64,000 nt of DNA from Candidatus Heimdallarchaeota archaeon (GTDB lineage Archaea; Asgardarchaeota; Heimdallarchaeia; Heimdallarchaeales; Heimdallarchaeaceae). Each line of letters starts with the position of its first letter. Position 1 is the first letter of the stretch. Shown piece after piece: positions 16,546 through 30,596 of this stretch. The DNA lies in assembly GCA_030603365.1 (NCBI GenBank), contig JAUVXV010000003.1, forward strand, positions 128,001 through 192,000. Direction: 5' to 3'. The notes under the pieces were generated by a model, which was given only the letters and a program-made list of their open reading frames with translations, searched no databases and was not told the origin of the DNA. Position numbers and translations under genes: made by a program.

Positions 16546-16926
16546 CTATTCCAGGATTTCGAGATCTACAGATTCTATTGTTAAATGTCTGATGTTAAGA
16601 TGGGTATCTCTTGAACCACATTTTGAACATTTGAAATTGTATGCAAACTCTTTATCACCTTCCTCAGAAGGTTCTCCTTTAAACTCGCACTCCAAACAGA
16701 TGATTTCTGCAGGTAATTTTAGTAATTCTAGATGAGCATTTTGAAATAATTCTATTTCAGTTATAATAATTTTGAATGCGTCCTGTAATAATTCGGGAAT
16801 TATCATTTCATAAGGATCTGCAGATACAGTCACTTTGTTAACTTTTAACGCTTTATGCTCAATCGCAATCTGCTTAACTTGATTGACAATTGCAGATGCT
16901 AGGCTGTATTCATGCATTTCATTCAA
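16546..16926 (-). CDS. hypA: Hydrogenase maturation nickel chaperone HypA
   Basis: MHEYSLA, CLEC...CSKCGS. Confidence 0.93.
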   Translation of the reverse strand: MNEMHEYSLASAIVNQVKQIAIEHKALKVNKVTVSADPYEMIIPELLQDAFKIIITEIELFQNAHLELLKLPAEIICLECEFKGEPSEEGDKEFAYNFKCSKCGSRDTHLNIRHLTIESVDLEILE

Positions 16927-16927
16927 C

Positions 16928-17581
16928 CTATTGTATTTTGATTCCTAAAGAAGCAATAAGCTCATCAATACCAGTTATTTGTTTTGCACTTGTACACAAA
17001 ACATCCATGTTAGATTTGATTTTCTTTGCGTCTTCAACCAAAACTTGAGAATCAAAGCCTAAACCATCTAGGTCACATTTGTTAATGACAGCTATCTGAG
17101 CTCCCTTGAAAATAATGGGGTGTTTCTTAATAACATACTCCCCTTCAGTAATACTGACAACAACAATATTTTTCTGAGCACCAACATCCCATGCAGCAGG
17201 ACAGATTAAGTTCCCAACATTTTCAGTAAAGAAAATATCATAATCATCAACATTTATTTTATCTAACTCATTTTTGATGAGTTTTGCATTGAGATGACAT
17301 CCTCCTCCAGTGTTTATTTGAACAGTATCTACCCCCTTTTTTGCAATTCTATCTGCATCAATTGTTGTAGCAATATCACCGTTTATGACAAATATTCTAA
17401 AATAAGGTGAAAGTTTTTCTGCAATTCTTTCTAATAAAAATGTTTTACCAGCACCAATAGAACCCATAATATTGAAGAAGAGCTTGTTTTTGCTTTTCAT
17501 CATCTCTCTAATTTCATCTGCAAGTATGTCATTCTGTAGATATGCGGGTTTCTTTACAGAAATTTTCTTCTCTTGTGTCAT
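16928..17581 (-). CDS. hypB: Hydrogenase nickel-incorporation GTPase HypB
   Basis: GSIGAGKT, DADRI, QINTGGGCHL, ENVGNLICPA, INKCD, TSAK. Confidence 0.95.
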   Translation of the reverse strand: MTQEKKISVKKPAYLQNDILADEIREMMKSKNKLFFNIMGSIGAGKTFLLERIAEKLSPYFRIFVINGDIATTIDADRIAKKGVDTVQINTGGGCHLNAKLIKNELDKINVDDYDIFFTENVGNLICPAAWDVGAQKNIVVVSITEGEYVIKKHPIIFKGAQIAVINKCDLDGLGFDSQVLVEDAKKIKSNMDVLCTSAKQITGIDELIASLGIKIQ

Positions 17582-17712: not shown

Positions 17713-19491
17713 ATGATGAAAAGATTAAGAAAGATGAAAAGAGCCGTTTCACCAGTTATTGCAACCGTTCTTTTAATAAGTTTAGTAGTTGCTGCAAGCG
17801 CAATGGTCTATTTTATTGTTGTACCATTATTGAAGGGGAGCGCGAGCGTGAATTTTGTAACTACACAATGGTTTGACAGTGATGGTGACGATGTTTCTGA
17901 TCTAGTGTATATAACTTTACAGAATACGGGATCAGCAAGTTCAAAAATTTCGAATATTACATTAACAATAGATAATGATGCTTTACCAGAAAGAACAGTA
18001 ATTGATAATGCAGAGCTGATAGTTGAAAAACTTCCCTTAACGCTTGATGTCACAGCAAGGATGGATATAGCTATTTCTTTTGATCCATCTGAATATATCG
18101 CAGTAGGCGATAATACTTTCAAGATTTTGCTTACATACAGTGATGGTCTTAGTTCAATTGCACCTGAAAACTTGAATCATATTAGTGTTATTTACCCATT
18201 AGAAATGACAGTTTTGAATCCTGTAAACGGTAGTTGGGTAAATGGTATTATTGATCCTCAAGTATTGGTGTCAGGAGGATATTTACCATCAGCAGTTACT
18301 TATGATTTCTTTCTACCTGGTCAAATTATTGCTTTAAACGACCAACCAGTTGCTAGTAATATTAATTCTGAAAGTTATGCTGATGATATTGGATATGAAA
18401 TGATTTTTTCAATTGATGACTCATTAAACCAGTCAGCTGTTTCAACAAACATCTTCAATATTGATAACAAAGCTATAGGTGTCACTTTAAGTGTGAGTTC
18501 AACAAGTATCAATCAAGGAGAATCCTTAAACGCAACATGGGTATGGGATGAACTTGGAGGAGCTCCTGTAATAAATCAGACACTTGTTTTATCGGGTGAT
18601 AGTTATGGTTCAGATTCAGTTTTTACTGCTTTAGATGATACTATAACAGCCTTTGTTCTTCTAGGAACCCAAACAGCTACAATAGCAGAGGACGACTTTA
18701 CACTTACTCTTTATGTAAAAGATGCAGTAGGTAATTTGAATAGTTCTGGTAAATCATTCTCATTAGTTGATATTCTTGCCCCAACATCTGAAATTCTCTC
18801 TCCTGTGAATGAAACCTATGGTATAGAGGGTATAATGAACATTGAAGTTTATGCTGCTGATCCAACAGGAATTGATACAACAAATTTCGATATTTACTTC
18901 TTCAGTCTAACAACATCTTTCTACTATTTGTACCAGAATGTTGTAGAAGGACTAGCGAACTATAATACCATAGATAGAACTTGGGAATTAGATTTCAATA
19001 GTTATCTACTCCCAGATGATGATTATGCAATGGTAACTTTTGTATATGATGATTCTGATGCAAAAAATGTAAAAACTGTTACTCATATACTCTCAGTAGC
19101 TAATCCAAAGCTTACATTATCTGGAGCAGTTGGTGTAAGAGGATTCTTCTCTCGAAGTACATTCAGTTTTTTCCTTACAAATAACTTACCAGACGATATC
19201 ACAATAACCCAAATCTATATTGATTGGGAACCAGATAACAGAGCAGATTATATCTATGAAATGAGAGATAACACAGATGGTACAATATGGTTATCTTCAG
19301 CAGGACAACCTTATGCTCAAGAAAGTGTATTGCCCGTAAATGGTGGTACAGGAGCAGTTTTAAGCGGAGGTTCAATCCATAAACTGACAATTCTATTTGA
19401 CTACTTTGATCGAACAGATAAAGCTGATTTCGAAATAAGGTTCTTTATTCAAGAATTAGGTGTATGGCAAATTTTCTTTGTAGATCAATAA
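17713..19491 (+). CDS. Large archaeal type IV pilin/archaellin-like protein with Ig-like beta domains
   Basis: Class III signal peptide KRA|VSPVIATVLLISLVVAA; beta-rich acidic body (YVKDAVGN, EVYAADPTG); no C-terminal anchor. Confidence 0.85.
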   Translation: MMKRLRKMKRAVSPVIATVLLISLVVAASAMVYFIVVPLLKGSASVNFVTTQWFDSDGDDVSDLVYITLQNTGSASSKISNITLTIDNDALPERTVIDNAELIVEKLPLTLDVTARMDIAISFDPSEYIAVGDNTFKILLTYSDGLSSIAPENLNHISVIYPLEMTVLNPVNGSWVNGIIDPQVLVSGGYLPSAVTYDFFLPGQIIALNDQPVASNINSESYADDIGYEMIFSIDDSLNQSAVSTNIFNIDNKAIGVTLSVSSTSINQGESLNATWVWDELGGAPVINQTLVLSGDSYGSDSVFTALDDTITAFVLLGTQTATIAEDDFTLTLYVKDAVGNLNSSGKSFSLVDILAPTSEILSPVNETYGIEGIMNIEVYAADPTGIDTTNFDIYFFSLTTSFYYLYQNVVEGLANYNTIDRTWELDFNSYLLPDDDYAMVTFVYDDSDAKNVKTVTHILSVANPKLTLSGAVGVRGFFSRSTFSFFLTNNLPDDITITQIYIDWEPDNRADYIYEMRDNTDGTIWLSSAGQPYAQESVLPVNGGTGAVLSGGSIHKLTILFDYFDRTDKADFEIRFFIQELGVWQIFFVDQ

Positions 19492-19520
19492 ACTCTTTTT
19501 TCTTTCCTTTTTCTTTTTCC
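19492..19520 (+). terminator. Oligo-T terminator
   Basis: Pyrimidine tract immediately after the stop. Confidence 0.6.
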
Positions 19521-19568
19521 ATTAATACTTTCGAAAAGCTAATAATATTACAGTTACATCTCTAACCT

Positions 19569-20468
19569 ATGAAAGTTACCTACGATAGATATCCAGAGCT
19601 ACCTAGATTTCTAAAAACTTTCGTAGAATTCACTGCTACGTCTTTAGCTACAAGATCTTTCATACTTTATGGCGATGTCGTTCTGGACGATTTTTCCAAA
19701 AGATACAGTAAAATCAATGTTATAATAATCCTAGAAAAAGGTCTATGGGAAAAGGATTTTAACGAGCTTGATTCGATTATAGATAAGCTTGCAGCTATGA
19801 ATGAAGATTTTTCTAAGTTACTTCGAGCTTATTTTGTTCCTTACACAATGCTGGAGAATCCGAGGATTATTCATCAAGATTTAGAGGGTATGATAGTAAG
19901 AGATCTTAAACAAGAGATAATTAATCAGTATCCTCTTTCTCAAACTGATGATTTCATGATTATGAAGAAAGGAGAAGTTTTGTATGGGGAAGATCTACGA
20001 AGTCATTTTCCAATTCCTCCATTAGAGTGTTTCTGGCAACAATTTCTAGCAGAAGTACCCAACATTGAAGAAATAGCCAAAATCTATCCCTTCCAACATA
20101 GTCAATCTCCCAATTATGATCACGCTACTAACTGGATACTTTACTTCTCAAGGGTTTTATATTCAATACAGAATAATGATGTAATTGGTAGAATGAAAGG
20201 TGCATATTGGTTTTCAAACGAATATCTCAATAAGTTAGGTGATTTTGTTGTAGAAGTAGCAAGTTGTAGACAACGAAATATTTCACTCTCAAGTGTTATG
20301 GGAGTGGTTGAGAACAGTAGAGAATTGATGTTATTCTGTATAGAAAAAGCATTTAAAATAAAAGGAATTCATACACCGGATCTAAAATCTCTCTATAAAG
20401 AAGACCAGGGACATGCTAATTTTAGTAGATTCTTTATGGAGATAAGAAATATAATAGAGAATATCTAA
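19569..20468 (+). CDS. AadA/ANT-like nucleotidyltransferase-fold protein, catalytically degenerate
   Basis: ILYGDVVLDDF...SKINVIII aligns to LYGS...GDF...SDIDxLV; GEVLYG; ILYFSRVLYSI...IGRMKGAYW is DUF4111-like. Confidence 0.75.
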   Translation: MKVTYDRYPELPRFLKTFVEFTATSLATRSFILYGDVVLDDFSKRYSKINVIIILEKGLWEKDFNELDSIIDKLAAMNEDFSKLLRAYFVPYTMLENPRIIHQDLEGMIVRDLKQEIINQYPLSQTDDFMIMKKGEVLYGEDLRSHFPIPPLECFWQQFLAEVPNIEEIAKIYPFQHSQSPNYDHATNWILYFSRVLYSIQNNDVIGRMKGAYWFSNEYLNKLGDFVVEVASCRQRNISLSSVMGVVENSRELMLFCIEKAFKIKGIHTPDLKSLYKEDQGHANFSRFFMEIRNIIENI

Positions 20469-20475
20469 GTATTCA

Positions 20476-21846
20476 ATGATGAGTCAGCGAGAAGATGTGC
20501 TCAATTCATTTATTGATATGCTACAGGTAATTTTTCCTGAAATTATATCAGTTTATGAATTTCAAAAAGAAATAGCACTCTTCGATAAAATTCTAGAGAA
20601 CTGTAAAGGATTAGTTATAATAATCTCTGAAGCTGATTACAGCTTAGAAAACCTAATACTTGTTGATCTTATTTATGATAAAATACAGGATGAACATGGC
20701 TGGGAAGAAGGAGTAAGATTAGCAAATTCTTTCTCAAGAAGCTATATTCGTACTGTCAATAATCTCTGGCACATCAATATAATGAATAATCACTGTCTTT
20801 TGCCCGAAGATCAAATTAATTTAAAGAATACAAGAAAACTTCTACATGGTACAAATATTATCCCTACTATCCCTTTTCCTCATAATGAAGAAGAAATACT
20901 AAAGATTAATGCTAACTTTACTAGAGAAGAAGCTCTAGAGTTATTCAATCAATCAGATCAGTATGTACCTCTCATTAATCCTGATTGTTGTTGGATGAGA
21001 TATGATTTCACAATCAATCATTCTCTAGTGCAGATTCTGGATGATCAATTCCTAAAAATGAAAGATAGGATCCAACCTGAAAAGAATGCTCATATTTATG
21101 GTCGTTATGGGGGGTCTGGTAAGACACAAATCATCTATTCTCTAATAAAAAAATGTAAAGAATTATCTCTTCCATTGATTTATAGAACTGAATTTTGGAA
21201 AGGAGAAGATGGAAAATATAAGGAGATAGAATTCAATCCAGAAAATTCCGCAGAAAGAGTTACTGAATGGGTAATTGAAAAATCTCCAGGAAGTAGATTT
21301 ATTTTATTTTTAGATGAAATAGAAGTAAATATTCGTCAGTTAAAAGAAAAATTAAGCGTAAAGTATCCTGGGGATGAAATAAACTTACTTATTATTTCTG
21401 GAGGAAAGGAAATTTCTCCCTTTATTGATGACAGTTTCGATGTTTATGATATCTCTAAAGAGTTCCCATTCAATGAATCACAGTTAAAAGAATTAGTAGA
21501 AAAACTAATAGAAAAATCAAACATAGCTTCAGATATTTTTCCAGAAGAAATTATTGATATCATCGTTACCAAAACAAAATTGTGGAACCACTCTTCAATA
21601 CGAAGAACTCCAACTTCTGTAATATTATCTAGTTCTCTTGCATTAGCTGAATCAATTAAGATAGCTAATGAAAATAATGAAGAAATTCAAATTAAACCTG
21701 AGTTAGCAGAAAAATGGTCGCTACTTAGTACATCTCCTTGGTATCAGAAATATGATGAGTTACATGATGTACATGCAGAATATTTGGTTTTTAATGGAAA
21801 GAAGTATGTGGATGTTGATAAACACTATCACCATCCTTTACCTTAG
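20476..21846 (+). CDS. P-loop ATPase with an N-terminal degenerate nucleotidyltransferase-like domain
   Basis: HIYGRYGGSGKT, ILFLDEIE; the N-terminal ~140 aa resemble the upstream gene. Confidence 0.65.
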   Translation: MMSQREDVLNSFIDMLQVIFPEIISVYEFQKEIALFDKILENCKGLVIIISEADYSLENLILVDLIYDKIQDEHGWEEGVRLANSFSRSYIRTVNNLWHINIMNNHCLLPEDQINLKNTRKLLHGTNIIPTIPFPHNEEEILKINANFTREEALELFNQSDQYVPLINPDCCWMRYDFTINHSLVQILDDQFLKMKDRIQPEKNAHIYGRYGGSGKTQIIYSLIKKCKELSLPLIYRTEFWKGEDGKYKEIEFNPENSAERVTEWVIEKSPGSRFILFLDEIEVNIRQLKEKLSVKYPGDEINLLIISGGKEISPFIDDSFDVYDISKEFPFNESQLKELVEKLIEKSNIASDIFPEEIIDIIVTKTKLWNHSSIRRTPTSVILSSSLALAESIKIANENNEEIQIKPELAEKWSLLSTSPWYQKYDELHDVHAEYLVFNGKKYVDVDKHYHHPLP

Positions 21847-21856
21847 ATTCCTCTTT

Positions 21857-22915
21857 CTATTCATCATAGTATTTGGAATAGATTGCATTACTTTGAGCAA
21901 ACTTAAGAAAGTGACTTAAATTGTCTCTTAATTCATTAACATTCCTTTCATGATACAAAGTAAGATAAAGAGTTCCAACAAGAAACGATGTACCAGAAAG
22001 AAGAATTAACACTAATAACATTATTCCAAGTGCAATAAGGAAAAGCAAAATAGATTCTTTAATTGTAATCGGATTAGTACCAAAAATAGATTCAAATAAA
22101 TCAGTAAAGAAGATTATCCCTGTAACGAAAGCTGATAGGCTGAAAAACCTGCTCAGAATACTCCTTCTCATTCTTTCTGATAACTGATAAACTTCATTAT
22201 TTTTGTTGATATACTTGATTCTAGTATCTTCTATTGCCCAAACCATAGGTGTTATCCAAGAAGTAAATATTGGAGAACAAAGGACTACAAACGCACCAAT
22301 CATAAAACCTAGAAAGTAGGAACTTGGTTGGCTGATTTGAATTATCATTGCAATAAGAATACTAATACTGAAACTGGAAGTTAGAAGATCATACATCCTA
22401 GTTTTCAGAAAAACGCGAATACTAGAAACATCGCTATTAATTGCTTCTTCTTCAAGGAAATATTGCGTATCAGGACTAATATCGATGTTCAATAGTGTAG
22501 TAAAAAGAACTCTAAAGAATTTGAATTTCTTGTATTTAGTCTCCTTTCTTAGTTCCCCAAGCATTTCCTTAATTTCAGATGCCTGATCATGTTTAATCTT
22601 TAAAGTCTGAAAAACAAGTTTCTTCGCTACCCATCGTCCTATCCAATTCCAAAGAAATACTGATAAGACAGGGGATACAATTGAGATAATAACTAGTGAA
22701 ATGACTAAGGTTCTGATATCTTTTGGAGTAGGTTTAACGTCCCAATTTGTATATCTGATTGCAACATACCAAATTGCATAAAAAGCAATAAAAATAGCAA
22801 TATTTAATACCCATTTTTTCTTTGAAGGCTTTGTAATCCTATATTTCGCACCTGTTGCACTAATTTCCTTGGTAGGTAGAATGAAACTCTTTTGCTTAGA
22901 TATATACTCACTCAA
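21857..22915 (-). CDS. Hypothetical 6-TM membrane protein
   Basis: Three hydrophobic hairpins separated by basic loops. Confidence 0.75.
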   Translation of the reverse strand: MSEYISKQKSFILPTKEISATGAKYRITKPSKKKWVLNIAIFIAFYAIWYVAIRYTNWDVKPTPKDIRTLVISLVIISIVSPVLSVFLWNWIGRWVAKKLVFQTLKIKHDQASEIKEMLGELRKETKYKKFKFFRVLFTTLLNIDISPDTQYFLEEEAINSDVSSIRVFLKTRMYDLLTSSFSISILIAMIIQISQPSSYFLGFMIGAFVVLCSPIFTSWITPMVWAIEDTRIKYINKNNEVYQLSERMRRSILSRFFSLSAFVTGIIFFTDLFESIFGTNPITIKESILLFLIALGIMLLVLILLSGTSFLVGTLYLTLYHERNVNELRDNLSHFLKFAQSNAIYSKYYDE

Positions 22916-23033
22916 TTAAGTAAATAATTATTCTAAAATATTAAACTTGTGAGACTTGCAACGCTTTATTATATTATCTGTAAAAAAATACATTTTCTGA
23001 ATGTTTAAATATTTGCTTGGCTAAACTTACTGG

Positions 23034-25535
23034 ATGGAAGTAGAAAAAGGAAAAAAAATTCACAGTGTGTTATCAACTATTTTCTATTACACATTTGTAT
23101 TGATTATAATCGCAGTTTTTGTTTTGTCTTTAGTAATTGAAGAGATCACACTTCTTAACAATATACTATTTATCTTTCTAATTGTAAGTTCAATAGTCAT
23201 TGTCTTTTATCTAACAGTTCAAATGCTGAGATATAACCTGACTGTGAACAAAAAAATACAAGCAGGTATATTCTTTGTAGTAATTGGTTTCCTTCTGATT
23301 CTTCTTTCAACCAGCAAACAGCTCTCATTTATTGAAAGCTTAGATCTTGACTTTCTTGGATATGATTTCTTTGTGTATTGGGGGATTGGATCTGTTGTAT
23401 TCGGGATATTTGTTGAACTTACATTTCTAGATCAGTTTATCTGGAAACTATTTGTGCAACCTATTAAATATCTCTGGAAATTAACTGCAAAATTTGCTAA
23501 ATGGGTTAGAAAAAATTGGTTAAACATTATTCTCTATACACTAGATTTAGCTTCTCTTGCAGGTATAATCTATGTGGCAATTTTCTGGAGCACAGATTGG
23601 TGGAAGATAACTGTTCTTTCAGTGAGTTGTGTTTACCCTTTAGTCCATCACCACAAAAGAATCTGGAAAGCGATAAAATTCATAGTTATTGATATAATTT
23701 ATGAATTTTTCAAAAAGGTAGGAGAATTCATTAAACAAGTTTGCACATCAATTTGGAATGCGATAGTTAGTTTTGTCAATTTAGTCTTGAAACACTGGTT
23801 GTCAATTCTCAAAGAGATTTTGAGGTTGATGGGTGCTGCAGGAGGGGGAGTGATGATTTATTTCGGTGCAACATTGGTGGAATATAGGTTTTTGATAGGA
23901 TTAGGAATAATAGCTATAGTTGTTAGTCTATTATTCACAAGAAAAACCATTCTAACAATGTTATGGGATCTACTTTCCTCAATTGCATCTTTCTTCTGGG
24001 ATAAGCTAATTTCTTTTATGAAAACTATTCTTGAAAAATGGTGGCCTATCTTTAAAGAATTCTTAAGGCTTGTTGGAGCTGCTGGAGGAGTTTATCTTAT
24101 CTATCATGGTTATGTTTTTGATCAGTTTTCCTATTTCATTGGAATTGGAGTTGCACTTATTCTAATTTCATTAATATTTACTAGAAAAGCTGTCTTAGTC
24201 TGGCTTGGAAATGGAATTTCGAAGTTTTGCACTTATATCTGGGAAGAAATACTCAAACCTTATTATGCTAGAATTATCAATGAAATTATAAGATTAATTT
24301 TTGTAGGAGGAGGGATTTATCTAATCTACTTAGGAGTAATCAAACAAATTTATTATTACTGTATTTACATAGGCATAGCAATTATCTTACTAGTAGAAAT
24401 TATAACAAGAAAAGCAGTGTTAAAGAAAATCTATTCTGTTATGAAAAACATTGCACTGGCATTCTGGGATTTATTAGTGTGGTTGACAAAACCATTCCGC
24501 TTCTTATGGGAAAAGCTTGTAGCAGTAACTAAATTCTTGATAAAAAACTGGTTCAAGGTAGTCCTATATTTATTAGACCTAGTTGCTATTGCAGCAATTA
24601 TCTATCTATCTATTACATGGAATTCTGAATGGTGGTATATTATCCTACTTTTCATTAGTTGTTGTTACATCCCTGCTCATCACTATAAACTAGTTTGGAA
24701 ATCTATCAAGTTTATAGGGATAAATATCTTCTATGATCCTTTCATTCGTTTTGTCAATTTAATTGCAGACTTCTTCAAAGCTTTATGGAATGGTCTAGTA
24801 GATATTGCTAAATTCTTAAAAGAACATTGGTGGACGATTTCCAAAGAAATTCTAAGGTTAATAGGAGCAACAGGAGGTATTACTCTTATAGTTTATAGTT
24901 TCATTCTAGAAGATTTCTCGTATTTAGCCTGGATAGGAATAACAGTTGTTCTTGTTAGTGAAATATTAAGTAGAAAAATTGTATTGAAAAAGATATATGA
25001 ATTCTTCAAGGCTATCTTTGTTTTCATCTTTGAAAATAGAGTGATTATTTCAAGGGTACTAGGATTCTTAGCAGCTCTTGCAGGTGTTATTATTCATTTT
25101 GTCCTTGACTATTTTATAACCTTCATTCTTCTTGTATCTATAGGAGGAACATTTGTACTTTTTGCACATTTCATATATCATCCAAAGAAACTGTGGGAAT
25201 TTTTGGTTAGTATTCCTAAAACATTGCATAAGATTTTAGTTACTATCTGGCTTACAATAAAGACTGGGTCAGTTTACATATATCAAAATGGTATTCGTTT
25301 AATATTGCTGATTGTAATGATATTCACTTTTATTTATGGTCTCTTTGTAGTTTTCAATTTTGATTTCATTGGTATTTTTGAGAATATAAGTGCTGCAATC
25401 AGAATCTCACTTGGTGCATTATTTGTAGTTGTAGCAGTTGTTGCTTTCATCCTTTTACGCAGAGAATTGAAGAAATTACGAACAGGTAGCTCAAAAGTGC
25501 TAGCTCAACAAATTCGAGAGAGGTGGAAGCAATGA
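23034..25535 (+). CDS. Large polytopic membrane protein built from internal repeats (TM hairpin + amphipathic helix)
   Basis: 4 x (K/N)E.(L/I)RL....GG repeats; 2 x KNW...YxLDL...WW...HH.K.xWK.IKF repeats. Confidence 0.85.
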   Translation: MEVEKGKKIHSVLSTIFYYTFVLIIIAVFVLSLVIEEITLLNNILFIFLIVSSIVIVFYLTVQMLRYNLTVNKKIQAGIFFVVIGFLLILLSTSKQLSFIESLDLDFLGYDFFVYWGIGSVVFGIFVELTFLDQFIWKLFVQPIKYLWKLTAKFAKWVRKNWLNIILYTLDLASLAGIIYVAIFWSTDWWKITVLSVSCVYPLVHHHKRIWKAIKFIVIDIIYEFFKKVGEFIKQVCTSIWNAIVSFVNLVLKHWLSILKEILRLMGAAGGGVMIYFGATLVEYRFLIGLGIIAIVVSLLFTRKTILTMLWDLLSSIASFFWDKLISFMKTILEKWWPIFKEFLRLVGAAGGVYLIYHGYVFDQFSYFIGIGVALILISLIFTRKAVLVWLGNGISKFCTYIWEEILKPYYARIINEIIRLIFVGGGIYLIYLGVIKQIYYYCIYIGIAIILLVEIITRKAVLKKIYSVMKNIALAFWDLLVWLTKPFRFLWEKLVAVTKFLIKNWFKVVLYLLDLVAIAAIIYLSITWNSEWWYIILLFISCCYIPAHHYKLVWKSIKFIGINIFYDPFIRFVNLIADFFKALWNGLVDIAKFLKEHWWTISKEILRLIGATGGITLIVYSFILEDFSYLAWIGITVVLVSEILSRKIVLKKIYEFFKAIFVFIFENRVIISRVLGFLAALAGVIIHFVLDYFITFILLVSIGGTFVLFAHFIYHPKKLWEFLVSIPKTLHKILVTIWLTIKTGSVYIYQNGIRLILLIVMIFTFIYGLFVVFNFDFIGIFENISAAIRISLGALFVVVAVVAFILLRRELKKLRTGSSKVLAQQIRERWKQ

Positions 25536-26902
25536 AGGAAGAAAAATCAATAGATATAGATACAGGAGATAAAACACCTGAATCCATTGAGAAAAATCCT
25601 GTGATAACAACACTATGGATAGGTTTCACTATCTCTGTTCTTAGTATCATAAGTATATTGATTTTAACATTAGCATTCAATCAAACTTATGATGATTTGT
25701 TCTTCAGAATAATCTTAGGTATTTTTGTAGTAGGGGTTCTGTTTTTATTCTTTGCTTTAATTCTACGTAGATTAAGAAGAAAGGGAATCGATTACTTTGT
25801 AACAGGAGCAATAACAGCCTACATAGGCTTCATTTTAGTGTCTTTTCCAGCTATTCTATTTGCAGTAGGTGTGACTTCTTTCGAACGCGATTATATCTTC
25901 TATATCTTAATGGCAACAGGTGTGATATTGATTATCTTTGGTTTCTTTTTTGAAGCATATGATCTTAATTTGAAGTTAATTGCTTTGATGAAGAAATTAA
26001 AAGAAGCATTGAAAAGAATCTGGAAGAAGATTAGCTGGAAACTATTCCTTTCTCCATGGAATTTATTGTCTGTGGCTGGAATAACAATAATCATTCTTGC
26101 AGCTGTAAAAGTGTTAGAGTTTATCAACCCATTATATTGGTATTTGATAGGTGGAGGATTAATTCTAATAAACATAGTCTGGCATTTCAGAAAAGAAATA
26201 GCAGAAATCCTTGTTAACCTTGGCAAAGTAATAACAACACTATTCCAAGCATGGTGGAGAGCTATAAAACAGATTCCTCAGATTATGAAGAAATTTGGAA
26301 TATGGATATACACCAAAACAATAGAGATAATAAAAGTAGTAGGGAAGGCAATAAAATTCTTTGTTATTAGAAATTATTTGATTCTATTTGTATTTGGAAT
26401 TTCTATGTTCATTGTTTTGCATTATCTGGGAATATTCAATCTCGAGATTCGTATCGCATTATCTTCCTTAGTATGTGGAATTGCTATAGTTAAGCCTATC
26501 ATAGATTGGAGAGAACATTTTGGAGAAGACATCAGTACTGCCAGGATGTACCTCTATAAAACAGCTCAGAAGACTAAGCGTATTTTCCAATATAGAAAAC
26601 TAACAAGATGCCCAAATTGCAATAGACCTAACGAAATTCTTAGAGAGTATTGTTGGAATTGTAATGAGTTATTACCAAAATGTATGATTTGCAGTAGTAA
26701 GGTTGAGAAAGGGACAAAAATAGCTAAATGTCAATTGTGTAATAACATCTTTCACATTGACCATCTAGAAACATGGTTAAGATTCAATACTAAATGTCCA
26801 GTCTGTAAAGAAACAATAGATAAGAAAGAAGAAGAATTCCTTCCTGAATCTACATATGAAGAAGAGTTGATTGAAGATATAACTCCAACTCTTGATCCAT
26901 GA
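25532..26902 (+). CDS. Polytopic membrane protein with C-terminal Zn-ribbon + RING-variant domain (putative membrane E3 ubiquitin ligase)
   Basis: About 8 TM; CPNC..CWNC then CMIC-x12-CQLC-x4-HIDH-LETWL...CPVC; ATGA overlap with the upstream stop, preceded by GAGGTG. Confidence 0.85.
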   Translation: MKEEKSIDIDTGDKTPESIEKNPVITTLWIGFTISVLSIISILILTLAFNQTYDDLFFRIILGIFVVGVLFLFFALILRRLRRKGIDYFVTGAITAYIGFILVSFPAILFAVGVTSFERDYIFYILMATGVILIIFGFFFEAYDLNLKLIALMKKLKEALKRIWKKISWKLFLSPWNLLSVAGITIIILAAVKVLEFINPLYWYLIGGGLILINIVWHFRKEIAEILVNLGKVITTLFQAWWRAIKQIPQIMKKFGIWIYTKTIEIIKVVGKAIKFFVIRNYLILFVFGISMFIVLHYLGIFNLEIRIALSSLVCGIAIVKPIIDWREHFGEDISTARMYLYKTAQKTKRIFQYRKLTRCPNCNRPNEILREYCWNCNELLPKCMICSSKVEKGTKIAKCQLCNNIFHIDHLETWLRFNTKCPVCKETIDKKEEEFLPESTYEEELIEDITPTLDP

Positions 26903-28498
26903 TTAGTAATAGATACTCTCATCTTTAGTATAATATTCTTCAATTTTAAAGATCTTCTTAGATATAGCTACAAAGGGTAGGGCAAAGATTAGCATAAATG
27001 CAATTGAGAAGAACATGATGTAAAACATATTATCTCCAGTATAGTATTCAAAAATACCTAGATTTAGAGTATCGACTAAGGATAACACACCTACTACAGC
27101 AAAACCTGCTCCAAGAATAGTGTAAATAACTGCAATTAGATACACTCTGATTTTCTTGTTCCATTGAAATTTCTTTCCTGCTTTAATCTTATTTCCTCCT
27201 AAAAATCCATTTCCTAGAGGAATGAGCAAGAATGGTGCCATTAGAGCCCCATATAACATAAAGAAAAGAACATACCACCATTTGAATTTGAAGTCATTTG
27301 ATTTCTTTGAATAAGCTCCAACAAATCCAAAAACACCAAAATAAACTAGAGCTATAATCACAGGCATAATAATGAGAGCGAGTTGATCAATGCCAAGAGC
27401 TCGATACATTGGCATATCTGTGAAGTAATGCACAATGAAAAGCGCTCCCATGAAATAAAATGCAGTTAAAACAACCACAACAGTTGAATTCATGAAAATA
27501 TCTACTCTTTGACGAAGTCGTAATTTACTAACAATAAGCTCTTTCTTATGATCCAAAACTGCACCAAATTGTCCTTTTGTCCATCTGAACATCTGAGACA
27601 TTTTATGGTCAAAAGATTCAGTAGACAAACCTTTTGCAGCTACTTCATTTAACCAATATCCATAGTGACCTTTTGCAGCTATAGTAATGTAGTGATCATA
27701 ATCTTCAGATAGTTTGTTTTCAGGTAGAGGATAGAGATGTTCTTTTCGAAAACAGGCTGAAGTACCAAAGAAAACAACAGATTTTATTCTTCTCTTCCCA
27801 CCTTCTGCAACAAACAATTGGTGAGTAGACATAGTCTCCCAAATATGAAGAAAATTAGTTACGCTTCTGAACTCATACTTAGCTTGAATGAAAGCATACT
27901 CTGGGTATTGTTCTAGAATAGCTACAAACTTATCTAAAATATCAGGAACGGGTATTTGATCAGAATCAAAAACTACAACATATGTCGCTTTTGATTTCAC
28001 TAAGGTTTGATTAACAACGCCTGCTTTGTAGGATCTGCCTTTTCCTCGCAAATAGGTGAAATTATACTTCTCGGCTAATTTTTCAGCAGATTCCTGATAT
28101 TCTGGTAAGGAATTATCATCTGCGATCCAGACATTGAAATTGGGATAAGTGAATTTACTGCAACCCTCAAGAGTTTCATTGAGAATTTTCGGATTGACAT
28201 TATGAACTGGAACTATCACATCTACAGAAGGATGTTCTTTTAGTTTCTTGATATCGTAATCAATAGCTCCTATGTCAAGATAACCATCAATATTCTGAAT
28301 TAGGAAATAAGTGGCATACAATGGACCTAAGAGTTCGAAAATGAGTACGAGCAGATTTAGGATAACTCCACCAGCTCCTAAATTAACATAGTTAACGACA
28401 AAAGCAGCAATAGAAGAGCCAAAATAAAGAAGAAAGAGACAATATAAGATGAAACCGAAAATGTGATTCAGTCGACTGAGGGTTTTCTTGGTTGGCAT
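26903..28498 (-). CDS. Processive GT2 glycosyltransferase (cellulose-synthase-like)
   Basis: ADD, YKAG, FDSDQ, SEDY, QMFRW (D,D,D,QxxRW) with flanking TM helices. Confidence 0.9.
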   Translation of the reverse strand: MPTKKTLSRLNHIFGFILYCLFLLYFGSSIAAFVVNYVNLGAGGVILNLLVLIFELLGPLYATYFLIQNIDGYLDIGAIDYDIKKLKEHPSVDVIVPVHNVNPKILNETLEGCSKFTYPNFNVWIADDNSLPEYQESAEKLAEKYNFTYLRGKGRSYKAGVVNQTLVKSKATYVVVFDSDQIPVPDILDKFVAILEQYPEYAFIQAKYEFRSVTNFLHIWETMSTHQLFVAEGGKRRIKSVVFFGTSACFRKEHLYPLPENKLSEDYDHYITIAAKGHYGYWLNEVAAKGLSTESFDHKMSQMFRWTKGQFGAVLDHKKELIVSKLRLRQRVDIFMNSTVVVVLTAFYFMGALFIVHYFTDMPMYRALGIDQLALIIMPVIIALVYFGVFGFVGAYSKKSNDFKFKWWYVLFFMLYGALMAPFLLIPLGNGFLGGNKIKAGKKFQWNKKIRVYLIAVIYTILGAGFAVVGVLSLVDTLNLGIFEYYTGDNMFYIMFFSIAFMLIFALPFVAISKKIFKIEEYYTKDESIYY

Positions 28499-28659: not shown

Positions 28660-29520
28660 ATGTTCAGTACAGTTAGTTTTCTAATTACACTTCGAGAAGC
28701 AATAGAAGCAGCCCTTATCATAGGGATTCTGCTAGTTTATGTTACCAAAATAGGTGAAAAGAAATTTAGAAAACAAATATGGATTGGAACAGGAATTGGT
28801 GTCCTTCTTTCAATTCTCTCTGCTGTGATTTTCCAATTTGTACTAGGAGGATTTGCTAGTTATGAAGAGATTTTTGAAGGATTTGCAATGATATTTGCTT
28901 CATTATTATTGACATGGATGATTATTTGGATGGTAAAAGCAAGTAAGAACCTTAGAGAAAAAATTGAAGCCAAAGTAGATAATACAATATTAAATCAGCA
29001 GAAATATGGTCTTTTAGCACTAGCCTTAATTTCTGTATTTCGAGAAGGAATCGAGACTGTACTTTTTTTGGCTGGTGTTGGAGCTGTTGAGGAGAACTTC
29101 TGGGTAGTATTGTGGTCGGGAATATTGGGAATAGTGGTTGCTATTGTAATATCAATATTGATTTTCTATTCAGGGAAGAAAATTAACCTCAAATGGTTTT
29201 TCTTAATAACAAGTTTCTTGCTGATACTTTTTGCAGCCGGAATGATAACTCACGGTTTTCATGAATTTCAAGAAATTGGATGGTTTGGATCTGAAACTCA
29301 TTGGTTCCAACAGTATGTGTGGGATAGCAGTGCTATTCTTAACGATAAAACAAGTGAATTAGGTAAATTCCTAAGAGCTTTGTTTGGATATCAAGATAAA
29401 CCAACGTGGTTAGAGATAATAGTATACTTAAGTTTCTATGTGATTTTAGGGTTGATTTTCATAATTACAAGTTGGATTTCAAAGAGAAGAGAACTTGAAA
29501 TTGAAGAATCCACTACTTGA
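28660..29520 (+). CDS. FTR1/EfeU-family iron permease
   Basis: Two RExxE motifs (REAIE, REGIE), 7 TM, LRALFGY. Confidence 0.93.
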   Translation: MFSTVSFLITLREAIEAALIIGILLVYVTKIGEKKFRKQIWIGTGIGVLLSILSAVIFQFVLGGFASYEEIFEGFAMIFASLLLTWMIIWMVKASKNLREKIEAKVDNTILNQQKYGLLALALISVFREGIETVLFLAGVGAVEENFWVVLWSGILGIVVAIVISILIFYSGKKINLKWFFLITSFLLILFAAGMITHGFHEFQEIGWFGSETHWFQQYVWDSSAILNDKTSELGKFLRALFGYQDKPTWLEIIVYLSFYVILGLIFIITSWISKRRELEIEESTT

Positions 29521-29612: not shown

Positions 29613-30596
29613 ATGGTAGAAGTATTAGAATGGCCACTTGGAAAAGGAAATGAAATAATGTACAGACATCCTCGTGATACTATCAACTGGGGAGATATGG
29701 TAAATGTTCTTCCAAACCAAGTTGCAGTATTCATCAAAGATTCAGTAGTCTATGATGTTCTTAAGGGTGGAAGACACTTGATGAAAACCAAGAATATTCC
29801 ATTTTTGACAACATTACTATCCAGAATAGTTGGATATGACAAAAGTCCGTTTAACTGTCAAGTTGTCTTTGTCAATATGGCTGATTTTCAAGGTAAATTC
29901 GGAGGGCGATCACAAACACAGGAATTAGCTCCTCTGCAATTCTTTGGCGATTATTACTACAAGATAGATGATATACAGAAATTTGTTTTTGAAATAGCAG
30001 GAAACAGAAATATCTATACAACAGCTGCATTCAATGAATTCTTTCGCTCATTTATTGTGGAATCTGTTATTAGCAAACTATCAGAAAAAAGTATAGTTGA
30101 TCTAATGTCCAATTTAGGAAAAACTTCAGATTTCGTAGAAGATGAAGTAAAACCTGATCTCAAAGAATTCGGAATAAAATTGAAAACTTTAAAGTTTGGA
30201 GGCCTAGATACTACACCTGAATACAGAGATAGACTCTTCTGGATGCGTTCAGGTGTTTCTGCAAATCAAGTACAACAGTATGCTGGAATGGCAAAAGTAG
30301 TTGAAAAACTCCCAGAAGGTGGTAGTGGATTGACAGGAGCTGTTATGATTAACAATCTTTTCTCAAGAGGCGAAATAAAACAAGCCAACAAGATTGAAGA
30401 GAAAGGAGATGTTGAAGCAGCTTTTATTACTTGTAACCAATGTAAGAACAAAATTTCTCCAGCAGCTAAATTCTGTGCAAGCTGTGGTGATCCAACTGAC
30501 GATGAAAAGAGTGGCAAAATGAAGTTTTGCACCAACTGTGGATCTAAGAATGATACTGGCGCTAAATTCTGTGGCAACTGTGGTGACAAGATCTAA
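29613..30596 (+). CDS. SPFH (band 7) domain protein with double zinc ribbon (YdjI-like)
   Basis: VLPNQVAVF..GGRH...TKNIPFLT..SPF.CQVVFVN; C-terminal CNQC/CASC/CTNC/CGNC. Confidence 0.88.
   Translation: MVEVLEWPLGKGNEIMYRHPRDTINWGDMVNVLPNQVAVFIKDSVVYDVLKGGRHLMKTKNIPFLTTLLSRIVGYDKSPFNCQVVFVNMADFQGKFGGRSQTQELAPLQFFGDYYYKIDDIQKFVFEIAGNRNIYTTAAFNEFFRSFIVESVISKLSEKSIVDLMSNLGKTSDFVEDEVKPDLKEFGIKLKTLKFGGLDTTPEYRDRLFWMRSGVSANQVQQYAGMAKVVEKLPEGGSGLTGAVMINNLFSRGEIKQANKIEEKGDVEAAFITCNQCKNKISPAAKFCASCGDPTDDEKSGKMKFCTNCGSKNDTGAKFCGNCGDKI

Follow-up and report, generated by a model that had tools for sequence, protein, structure and literature searches.

The window analysed here is a stretch of 64,000 nucleotides from contig JAUVXV010000003.1 (positions 128,001 to 192,000) of a Candidatus Heimdallarchaeota archaeon, assembly GCA_030603365.1, whose genome comprises 3.65 Mb in 17 contigs. 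Two adjoining genes on its forward strand are the subject of this study. Gene A (23034..25535, +) encodes an 833-amino-acid polytopic repeat membrane protein with no match in Pfam or NCBIfam. Gene B (25532..26902, +) encodes a membrane RING protein of 456 amino acids when counted from its ATG; an in-frame GTG at 25523 would extend it to 459 amino acids. The two genes meet at a coupling junction (25520..25535, +) made up of a Shine-Dalgarno-like GAGGTG (25520-25525), a spacing of 6 nt, and an ATGA in which the stop codon of gene A overlaps the start codon of gene B (25532-25535). This layout of two open reading frames (ORFs) was part of an earlier annotation made from the letters of the window (the original prediction), and it holds at both positions. 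Upstream of gene A, a divergent intergenic region of 118 nt contains the TATA-like TTTAAATA (23004..23011, +), which was read from the sequence and lies 23-30 nt 5' of the ATG. It may be the archaeal promoter of an operon whose transcript is leaderless or has a short leader.

Gene B ends in a zinc ribbon that is followed by a RING finger. The zinc ribbon (residues 360-377; 26609..26662, +) is of the C4 type with invariant ligands C360, C363, C374, and C377, and Pfam DZR scores 26.4 bits on the isolated domain. The RING finger (residues 384-425; 26681..26806, +) is recognized by Pfam zf-RING_2, whose cut-off of 27.3 bits is exceeded both by the whole protein (29.6 bits) and by residues 352-436 (33.9 bits). 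The same family is matched by 34 of 34 homologs of B, which reach down to 41% identity. In these homologs, the eight ligands C384, C387, C400, C403, H408, H411, C422, and C425 are invariant, in a variant C4-H2-C2 order with the spacing C-x2-C-x12-C-x2-C-x4-H-x2-H-x10-C-x2-C. The positions expected to contact an E2 are also kept, with I386 in at least 90% of the homologs, W415 and P423 invariant, and Lys or His after the last Cys (K426 in B). The zinc ribbon, the RING, and the Trp typical of the E2-binding face had all been named in the original prediction.

The family profile of the zinc ribbon and RING finds its best matches among active RING-H2 E3 ligases, namely Arkadia (E 2e-8) and then RNF165, RNF38, RLIM, and EL5 (to 1e-5). 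The modelled RING, with a local predicted local distance difference test (pLDDT) score of about 80, superimposes in Foldseek on RNF165 of an E2-Ub complex (5d0m_C; 1.3 Å over 48 residues) on RING1B (4s3o_B; 1.8 Å over 56 residues), and on RNF38, at a probability of 1.00. VIA gives Z of 7.3-7.5 for the model of B against RING/U-box domains. The B RING is probably catalytic, because its closest relatives are active E3s and the residues of its E2 face are conserved.

The membrane part of B spans residues 23-324 (25598..26503, +). Helices of the AlphaFold2 (AF2) model, hydrophobic moments, and counts of Lys and Arg together describe eight transmembrane (TM) helices arranged as four hairpins, with both termini inside. 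The long amphipathic linkers at residues 143-175 and 219-279 are cytoplasmic, and in the AF2 model a helical cytoplasmic stalk (residues 325-355) joins the TM part to the zinc ribbon. The inferred cytoplasmic loops hold 4, 9, and 11 Lys plus Arg residues, whereas the short turns on the outer side hold 0, 1, 1, and 0. This bias toward the long loops gives an N-in/C-in topology and places the RING in the cytoplasm. It is nearly certain that B is a membrane RING protein facing the cytoplasm. Invariant polar residues (E141, N146, N177, and N214) are found in or beside the TM helices. The AF2 model of B has a pLDDT of 76.6 and a predicted template modelling score (pTM) of 0.42. Apart from RING/U-box domains, Foldseek and VIA searches with this model return nothing but helical hairpins of a generic kind (Z no higher than 8.7, which is within the noise level for helical proteins). 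Hrd1, MARCH, reticulon, and transporter structures are absent from these matches, which does not imply a novel fold.

Gene A encodes a protein that is helical throughout, by both hydropathy and AF2 secondary structure. Two types of repeat follow one another in the order A-B-B-B-A-B and are enclosed by N- and C-terminal groups of TM helices. The N-terminal bundle (residues 1-136; 23034..23441, +) has about four TM helices, is the most conserved part of the protein, and is closed by an invariant E128-L-T-x-x-D133-Q134-x-x-W137 motif. It is followed by the first type-A module (residues 143-215; 23460..23678, +), three tandem type-B modules (residues 245-466; 23766..24431, +; units 245-312, 325-393, and 398-466), the second type-A module (residues 484-560; 24483..24713, +), and a fourth type-B module (residues 588-655; 24795..24998, +). 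The C-terminal part (residues 660-833; 25011..25532, +) contains about four to five TM helices (660-813) and then a conserved basic cytoplasmic tail, in which K814, L815, T817, G818, I827, and W831 are invariant. The repeats are genuine and far above chance. Residues 143-320 align with residues 484-660 at a Smith-Waterman z of 44, and the four short units align pairwise at z of 11-26.

Each type-B unit is composed of an amphipathic helix of 30-58 residues, the motif E-x-L-R-L-x-G-A-x-G-G, a TM hairpin, and (T/S)-R-K. The hairpin has a 20-residue arm, a turn of 3-6 residues, and a 16-residue arm, and E, R, and R are kept without exception in all copies across 23 sequences. Arms of 16-20 residues and turns of 3-6 are the rule for the hairpins, and the first arms are rich in Gly. 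Type-A modules are made up of an amphipathic helix and a TM hairpin whose first arm contains an invariant Asp and whose second arm ends in His-His. Both copies carry this motif in the 23 sequences, as D171 and H205-H206 (23544-23546 and 23646-23651, +) and as D515 and H549-H550 (24576-24578 and 24678-24683, +). These residues might serve to pair helices or form a site for a metal or a proton.

The linkers between hairpins have a mean hydrophobic moment of 0.44-0.57, compared with 0.22-0.27 in shuffles of the same segments, and a mean hydrophobicity of 0.5-0.86. Most of them contain 5-12 Lys or Arg and 2-4 Trp, and topology analysis places all of them on the cytoplasmic side. In-plane amphipathic helix accounts for about 330 residues in A and about 100 in B. 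The alternation of hairpins and amphipathic stretches described in the original prediction is thus borne out by repeat z-scores, hydrophobic moments, and topology.

B is related to A in its membrane part. Residues 40-272 of B align collinearly with residues 26-264 of A (hhalign E 3e-4, probability 39%), and within this alignment the N-terminal bundle of A (1-136) corresponds to residues 40-142 of B. Motifs common to both proteins lie at the end of TM4 (VELTFLDQ in A, FEAYDLN in B) and in the first hairpin module. It is weakly supported but plausible that the membrane part of B is a paralog of the N-terminal third of A.

The distribution of the pair was surveyed in 400 Asgard species genomes, in which four Genome Taxonomy Database (GTDB) families are labelled f1-f4, of which f1, f2, and f4 belong to one order of Heimdallarchaeia. 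The A profile matches family f1 only (23 of 30 genomes, four of five genera) and none of the 370 other Asgard genomes. The membrane part of B is found in the same 23 f1 genomes, beside A on the same contig, and the two genes adjoin in every f1 genome where both were assembled. In three long contigs (L015, L016, and L018) they share the strand and a 4-nt overlap. Diverged homologs of B, at 24-34% identity, are present in f2 (1 of 1 genome) and f4 (7 of 12), and the B membrane part has no match in f3 or in other families of the class Heimdallarchaeia. Four of the f2/f4 homologs match the B profile over its full length (E 1e-49 to 1e-59). Homologs of A and B come almost only from metagenome-assembled genomes (MAGs) labelled Heimdallarchaeota, Heimdallarchaeaceae, or 'Asgard group'; the 26 homologs of gene A are all from Heimdall/Asgard MAGs. 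Protein family A is narrow, since a profile search of 1.84 billion cluster representatives found only 24 relatives. An ESM-Atlas feature search with A gave no usable match.

Each full-length B homolog of f2 and f4 is directly preceded by a polytopic repeat protein of 579-731 amino acids, with an overlap of 0-4 nt or abutting genes. These partners have an N-terminal TM bundle ending in F-x-L-x-L-D and then repeated helix/hairpin units, and they are positional and architectural equivalents of A. The type-A D/HH motif is not kept in them. In one such partner (locus L032; G010:C145, 2833-4572, -), two tandem hairpin/helix units (about 221-300 and 302-381) are 78% identical (62/79), and the units are therefore still being duplicated. 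Across three families and 19 loci, a GGAGG or GAGGTGG stands 6-9 nt upstream of B together with a stop/start overlap or abutment, in the forms ATGA, TTGA, TAATG, and TAG-ATG. Because this coupling is conserved over three families, A and B likely act together. The expectation that the pair would be conserved was thus correct, with the genes side by side in f1 and coupled in 19 loci; the host range is one order of Heimdallarchaeia and not the Asgard archaea at large.

The genome that carries the pair also encodes a ubiquitin system. One cluster (C17:21809-27259) is composed of E1, ubiquitin, RING, and E2 genes, and another (C1:330186-331988) of E2-like, E1, and ubiquitin genes. Within them, an E1 gene lies at C17:21809-22705, an E2 gene at C17:26786-27259, and a ubiquitin gene at C1:331791-331988; three other UQ_con genes bring the E2s of the genome to four. 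The E2 carries HPN...C, and the ubiquitin ends in KGG-S. The Asgard host with ubiquitin machinery that had been predicted from the window is therefore real, as E1, E2, and ubiquitin are all found. There are 14 RING matches in the genome, and several of the proteins concerned are anchored by a single TM helix or by two. Some of these other RINGs have the C-x2-C-x4-H-x2-H-x3-W pattern or the order of zinc ribbon and RING seen in B, and a soluble protein of 554 amino acids (locus L012) has the same zinc ribbon and C4-H2-C2 RING. The occurrence of this RING type on other soluble or TM-anchored proteins is what would be expected of a diversified E3 repertoire.

A and B could well be the subunits of a heteromeric integral-membrane RING E3 ubiquitin ligase specific to one Heimdallarchaeia order, and this is the reading favoured here, with the balance of evidence close to even. 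It is favoured because of the pairing, the coupling signals, the common origin of the two proteins, the membership of B in the RING family, the E2 face, the cytoplasmic topology, and the ubiquitin system of the host. B would be the E2-recruiting subunit, anchored by its four TM hairpins, with the zinc ribbon and RING held in the cytoplasm on the helical stalk so that E2~Ub is recruited at the cytoplasmic face. A and B would go back to one membrane module, which in A grew through tandem duplication of units made up of an in-plane amphipathic helix and a TM hairpin. A would lie on the cytoplasmic leaflet as a large, flat interfacial platform, holding the ligase in position and selecting or presenting its substrates (membrane proteins, or A itself), which would be ubiquitylated through the E1, E2, and ubiquitin of the genome. 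Binding between A and B, catalytic competence of the RING, and membrane proteins as its substrates are inferences. A complex prediction of A(1-330), A(655-833), and B(20-350) gave a score of 0.03 against a mark of 0.32, which weighs neither for nor against binding.

Several results weigh against a two-subunit ligase. The homology of A and B is weak at the hhalign probability given above, and hhalign finds no significant similarity between A and the f2/f4 partners (probability 5.8%, E 0.0065, with a reversed control at E 0.14). A search for longer proteins as A-B fusions found none, which is weak evidence. The pair has no linked gene for the ubiquitin system, the proteasome, Cdc48, or ESCRT. 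Confidence in the AF2 model of A is low (pLDDT 63, pTM 0.24); Foldseek searches of the Protein Data Bank (PDB) with this model gave only E > 2, and an Atlas structure search gave a TM-score of at most 0.14. The RING itself departs from the norm. Canonical RING-H2 fingers have C3H2C3 ligands in the pattern C-x2-C-x(9-39)-C-x(1-3)-H-x(2-3)-H-x2-C-x(4-48)-C-x2-C. In B, an invariant Asn405 takes the position of His-4, with an extra Cys400 three residues upstream, and His411 serves as ligand 6. Cys400 presumably takes over the role of ligand 4, and the zinc site is non-canonical on account of both the Asn and its stand-in.

The unusual ligand also fits a different reading, in which the zinc ribbon and RING are a non-catalytic assembly junction, either a RING-RING dimer of B or a contact with another RING protein as in GATOR2/SEA, IFT-A, and HOPS, and the pair is a scaffold or receptor unrelated to ubiquitin transfer. 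Here, too, there is evidence that counts against a ligase: the top Foldseek rows for the model of B are the C-termini of GATOR2 WDR24/WDR59/MIOS and of IFT-A (probability 0.95-0.98), and the two-domain profile matches the C-terminus of IFT-A WDR19 over both domains (E 1.4e-6, 78 residues, profile positions 5-82) and, less strongly, WDR59 (E 1.3e-3) and MIOS (E 1.6e-3). ESM-Atlas neighbours of B carry Zf_2nd_IFT121. In the yeast SEA complex, zinc-finger RINGs pair with other RINGs as structural heterodimerization junctions and 'clearly play a structural role' (PMC9646525). The best sequence matches of the B RING itself, however, are active E3s, and the Ile, Trp, and Pro of the E2 contact are invariant or nearly so in homologs that have diverged widely. 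A has no RING with which that of B could pair, and the genome has the complete ubiquitin system as well as a varied complement of RINGs of this type. A purely structural role for the RING strikes us as rather improbable but is a serious rival to the ligase reading.

The anatomy of the pair gives weight to another possibility, that A and B are a scaffold that shapes the membrane or senses its curvature by expanding the cytoplasmic leaflet, the RING serving only to regulate or tag it. Every linker is strongly amphipathic, hydrophobic, and rich in Lys/Arg and Trp, all lie on the side of the cytoplasmic leaflet, and the hairpins are short with Gly-rich first arms. In the AF2 models, A and B have very long continuous helices of 60-74 residues that do not gather into a compact bundle. 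Searches matched no fold of a transporter or enzyme, and the number of units varies through recent tandem duplication, as in a modular scaffold. The design also resembles that of reticulon and REEP proteins, which PMC7835363 describes as TM hairpins with an amphipathic helix. Membrane bending by A and B would be compatible with this anatomy. There is, however, no homology to Reticulon, REEP/DP1, or any Pfam family. The missing tertiary packing may stem from a shallow alignment of 23 sequences, arms of 16-20 residues can cross the bilayer as ordinary TM helices, and these organisms, which are uncultured, have no known membrane phenotype. A scaffold of this kind is an unlikely explanation of the pair as a whole. 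A bolder form of the idea, that the pair is a ubiquitin-controlled prokaryotic membrane remodeller, is more doubtful still. In such a system, the array of helices and hairpins would wedge into the cytoplasmic leaflet and make or stabilize inward tubules or highly curved domains, and the RING would ubiquitylate the Lys-rich helices or cargo to switch clustering or turnover. A eukaryotic parallel is the reticulon-homology protein FAM134B, which is regulated by the polytopic ligase AMFR/gp78 in remodelling of the endoplasmic reticulum (ER). If the remodeller were real, it would be a functional analogue of FAM134B under AMFR/gp78 control and an independent archaeal invention.

It is highly improbable that A and B are instead a conventional transporter, a channel, or an enzyme of the membrane whose zinc-finger tail has a regulatory role. 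Both proteins are polytopic and have invariant polar residues in or near their TM helices, namely the Asp and His-His of the type-A modules and the Glu and three Asn of B. Yet Pfam, NCBIfam, PDB, and Atlas searches find no match to any transporter or enzyme, a conventional transporter being the outcome that the original prediction had named as fatal to its reading of the repeats. The outer loops are only 4-8 residues long, the repeat number is variable, and the D/HH motif is lost in the f2/f4 partners.

The favoured ligase shares its general plan with polytopic RING ligases such as Hrd1/synoviolin, gp78/AMFR, and RNF13/ZNRF3, in which a cytoplasmic RING comes after a membrane domain with several spans, and the Ile/Trp/Pro E2 face of the polytopic RING-H2 E3s is conserved in B. 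The B RING profile matches synoviolin (E 2e-4) and AMFR (E 2e-4), with stronger matches to Arkadia, RNF165, and RNF38. The Hrd1 ligase works with the membrane partners Hrd3/Der1, and A may be comparable to these as a membrane partner of B. Unlike ligases of the Hrd1/gp78 type, B has C4-H2-C2 ligands, an Asn at His-4, and a zinc ribbon before the RING; its partner is a paralogous repeat protein, and its host is a prokaryote without an ER. Pfam, PDB-sequence, Foldseek, and VIA searches match B to Hrd1/AMFR by the RINGs only and give no match for the TM region, the model searched being of more than 400 residues with the TM domain not folded alone.

The resemblance to reticulon, REEP, and FAM134 proteins, which also combine short TM hairpins with amphipathic helices on the cytoplasmic leaflet, is architectural only. 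The hairpins of A and B, with about 36-39 hydrophobic residues each, are comparable to those of reticulon and REEP proteins. Searches of A and B against Pfam with hmmscan (E up to 0.1) found neither reticulon PF02453 nor REEP PF03134. Reticulon and REEP proteins have two hairpins and one helix, whereas A has about eight to nine hairpin/helix units and far longer linkers of 30-58 residues. The original prediction of a two-subunit membrane scaffold plus E3 ligase thus stands in part: the pair is coupled, and B is a polytopic membrane protein with a cytoplasmic RING and a conserved E2 face. Of the four outcomes that the original prediction had named as refuting it, none of those open to analysis came about. 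The sequence or fold relationship to reticulon/REEP/FAM134, Hrd1/gp78, or MARCH that its comparisons suggested was not found.

In B, the zinc ribbon runs directly into the RING, as it does in IFT-A WDR19/IFT144 and IFT121/122 and in GATOR2/SEA WDR24/WDR59/MIOS. The protocoatomer architecture of an N-terminal beta-propeller plus alpha-solenoid is absent from B; its N-terminal 350 residues are eight TM helices and amphipathic linkers. B also differs from SEA/GATOR2 in its conserved E2-face residues and in a partner that has no RING. As a separate observation, the archaeal zinc ribbon and RING type (26609-26806) could be related to the C-terminal domains of protocoatomer proteins (WDR19/IFT144 and WDR59/MIOS/WDR24).

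A closer comparison within the archaea is with Prok-RING_1 and the RINGs of the Caldiarchaeum-Asgard ubiquitin operons. Pfam Prok-RING_1 (PF14446) is matched by 27 of the 34 members of the B family at E <=0.01 (best 1.3e-8), B itself not being among those listed, and the same genome has the E1-Ub-RING-E2 cluster on C17. The operon RINGs are small proteins, soluble or with a single TM helix, whose genes lie within ubiquitin operons, whereas B is fused to an eight-TM domain, coupled to A, and unlinked to ubiquitin genes. An archaeal RING of the ubiquitin-operon type is an active E3 (Hennell James et al. 2017, as cited in PMC9192718).

In the literature searched, no description of the A-B pair was found. 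Membrane RING ligases and archaeal RINGs are already known kinds. What is new is an eight-TM domain joined to a zinc ribbon and RING, a paralogous partner of repeated hairpins and amphipathic helices, a conserved translational coupling, and protein family A. Polytopic RING ligases that police membrane proteins, such as Hrd1, gp78, and MARCH, are regarded as eukaryotic, and the archaeal ubiquitin systems described so far have, to our knowledge, small RING proteins encoded in ubiquitin operons. If the ligase reading is true, Asgard archaea already direct ubiquitylation to the membrane, and the pair is a simple two-gene system for studying membrane-directed ubiquitylation. Because the pair is restricted to a single order, and A can be recognized in a single family, an origin as a lineage-specific invention is more likely for the pair than ancestry of the eukaryotic machinery for ER-associated degradation or ER shaping. 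The protein family of gene A is new and merits structural study in itself for its unusual architecture, which is interfacial almost throughout.

The neighbours of the pair were considered as further components. The stop codon of gene B abuts that of a convergent GT2 cellulose-synthase-like gene (26903-28498, -), which is followed by an FTR1 iron permease gene (28660-29520, +) and by a gene for an SPFH (Band_7_1) protein with three C-terminal zinc ribbons (29613..30596, +). In at least eight genomes of the same genus, the SPFH gene lies directly 3' of B; here the GT2 and FTR1 genes intervene. It was rejected as a third component, being adjacent within the genus only, on another contig in genus g4, and present in genomes that lack the pair. 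Divergent from gene A is a gene for a multi-TM protein of 352 amino acids without a family (21857-22915, -). This gene adjoins A in many genomes of the genus, is unlinked elsewhere, and is interrupted by a TAA in G018; it was rejected as a core part on the same grounds of linkage within the genus only. Because neither gene is consistently linked to the pair, the functional unit is A plus B.

Farther upstream, three genes without a family (592, 299, and 456 amino acids; 17713-21846, +) form a block, and the last of these products has a weak match to the P-loop family ATPase_2. The order of the block is kept beside the pair in L015 and L018, and the block is inverted and moved in L016. Two ORFs of 126 and 217 amino acids (16546-17581, -) lie where syntenic loci have HypA and CobW/HypB-like genes of nickel insertion.

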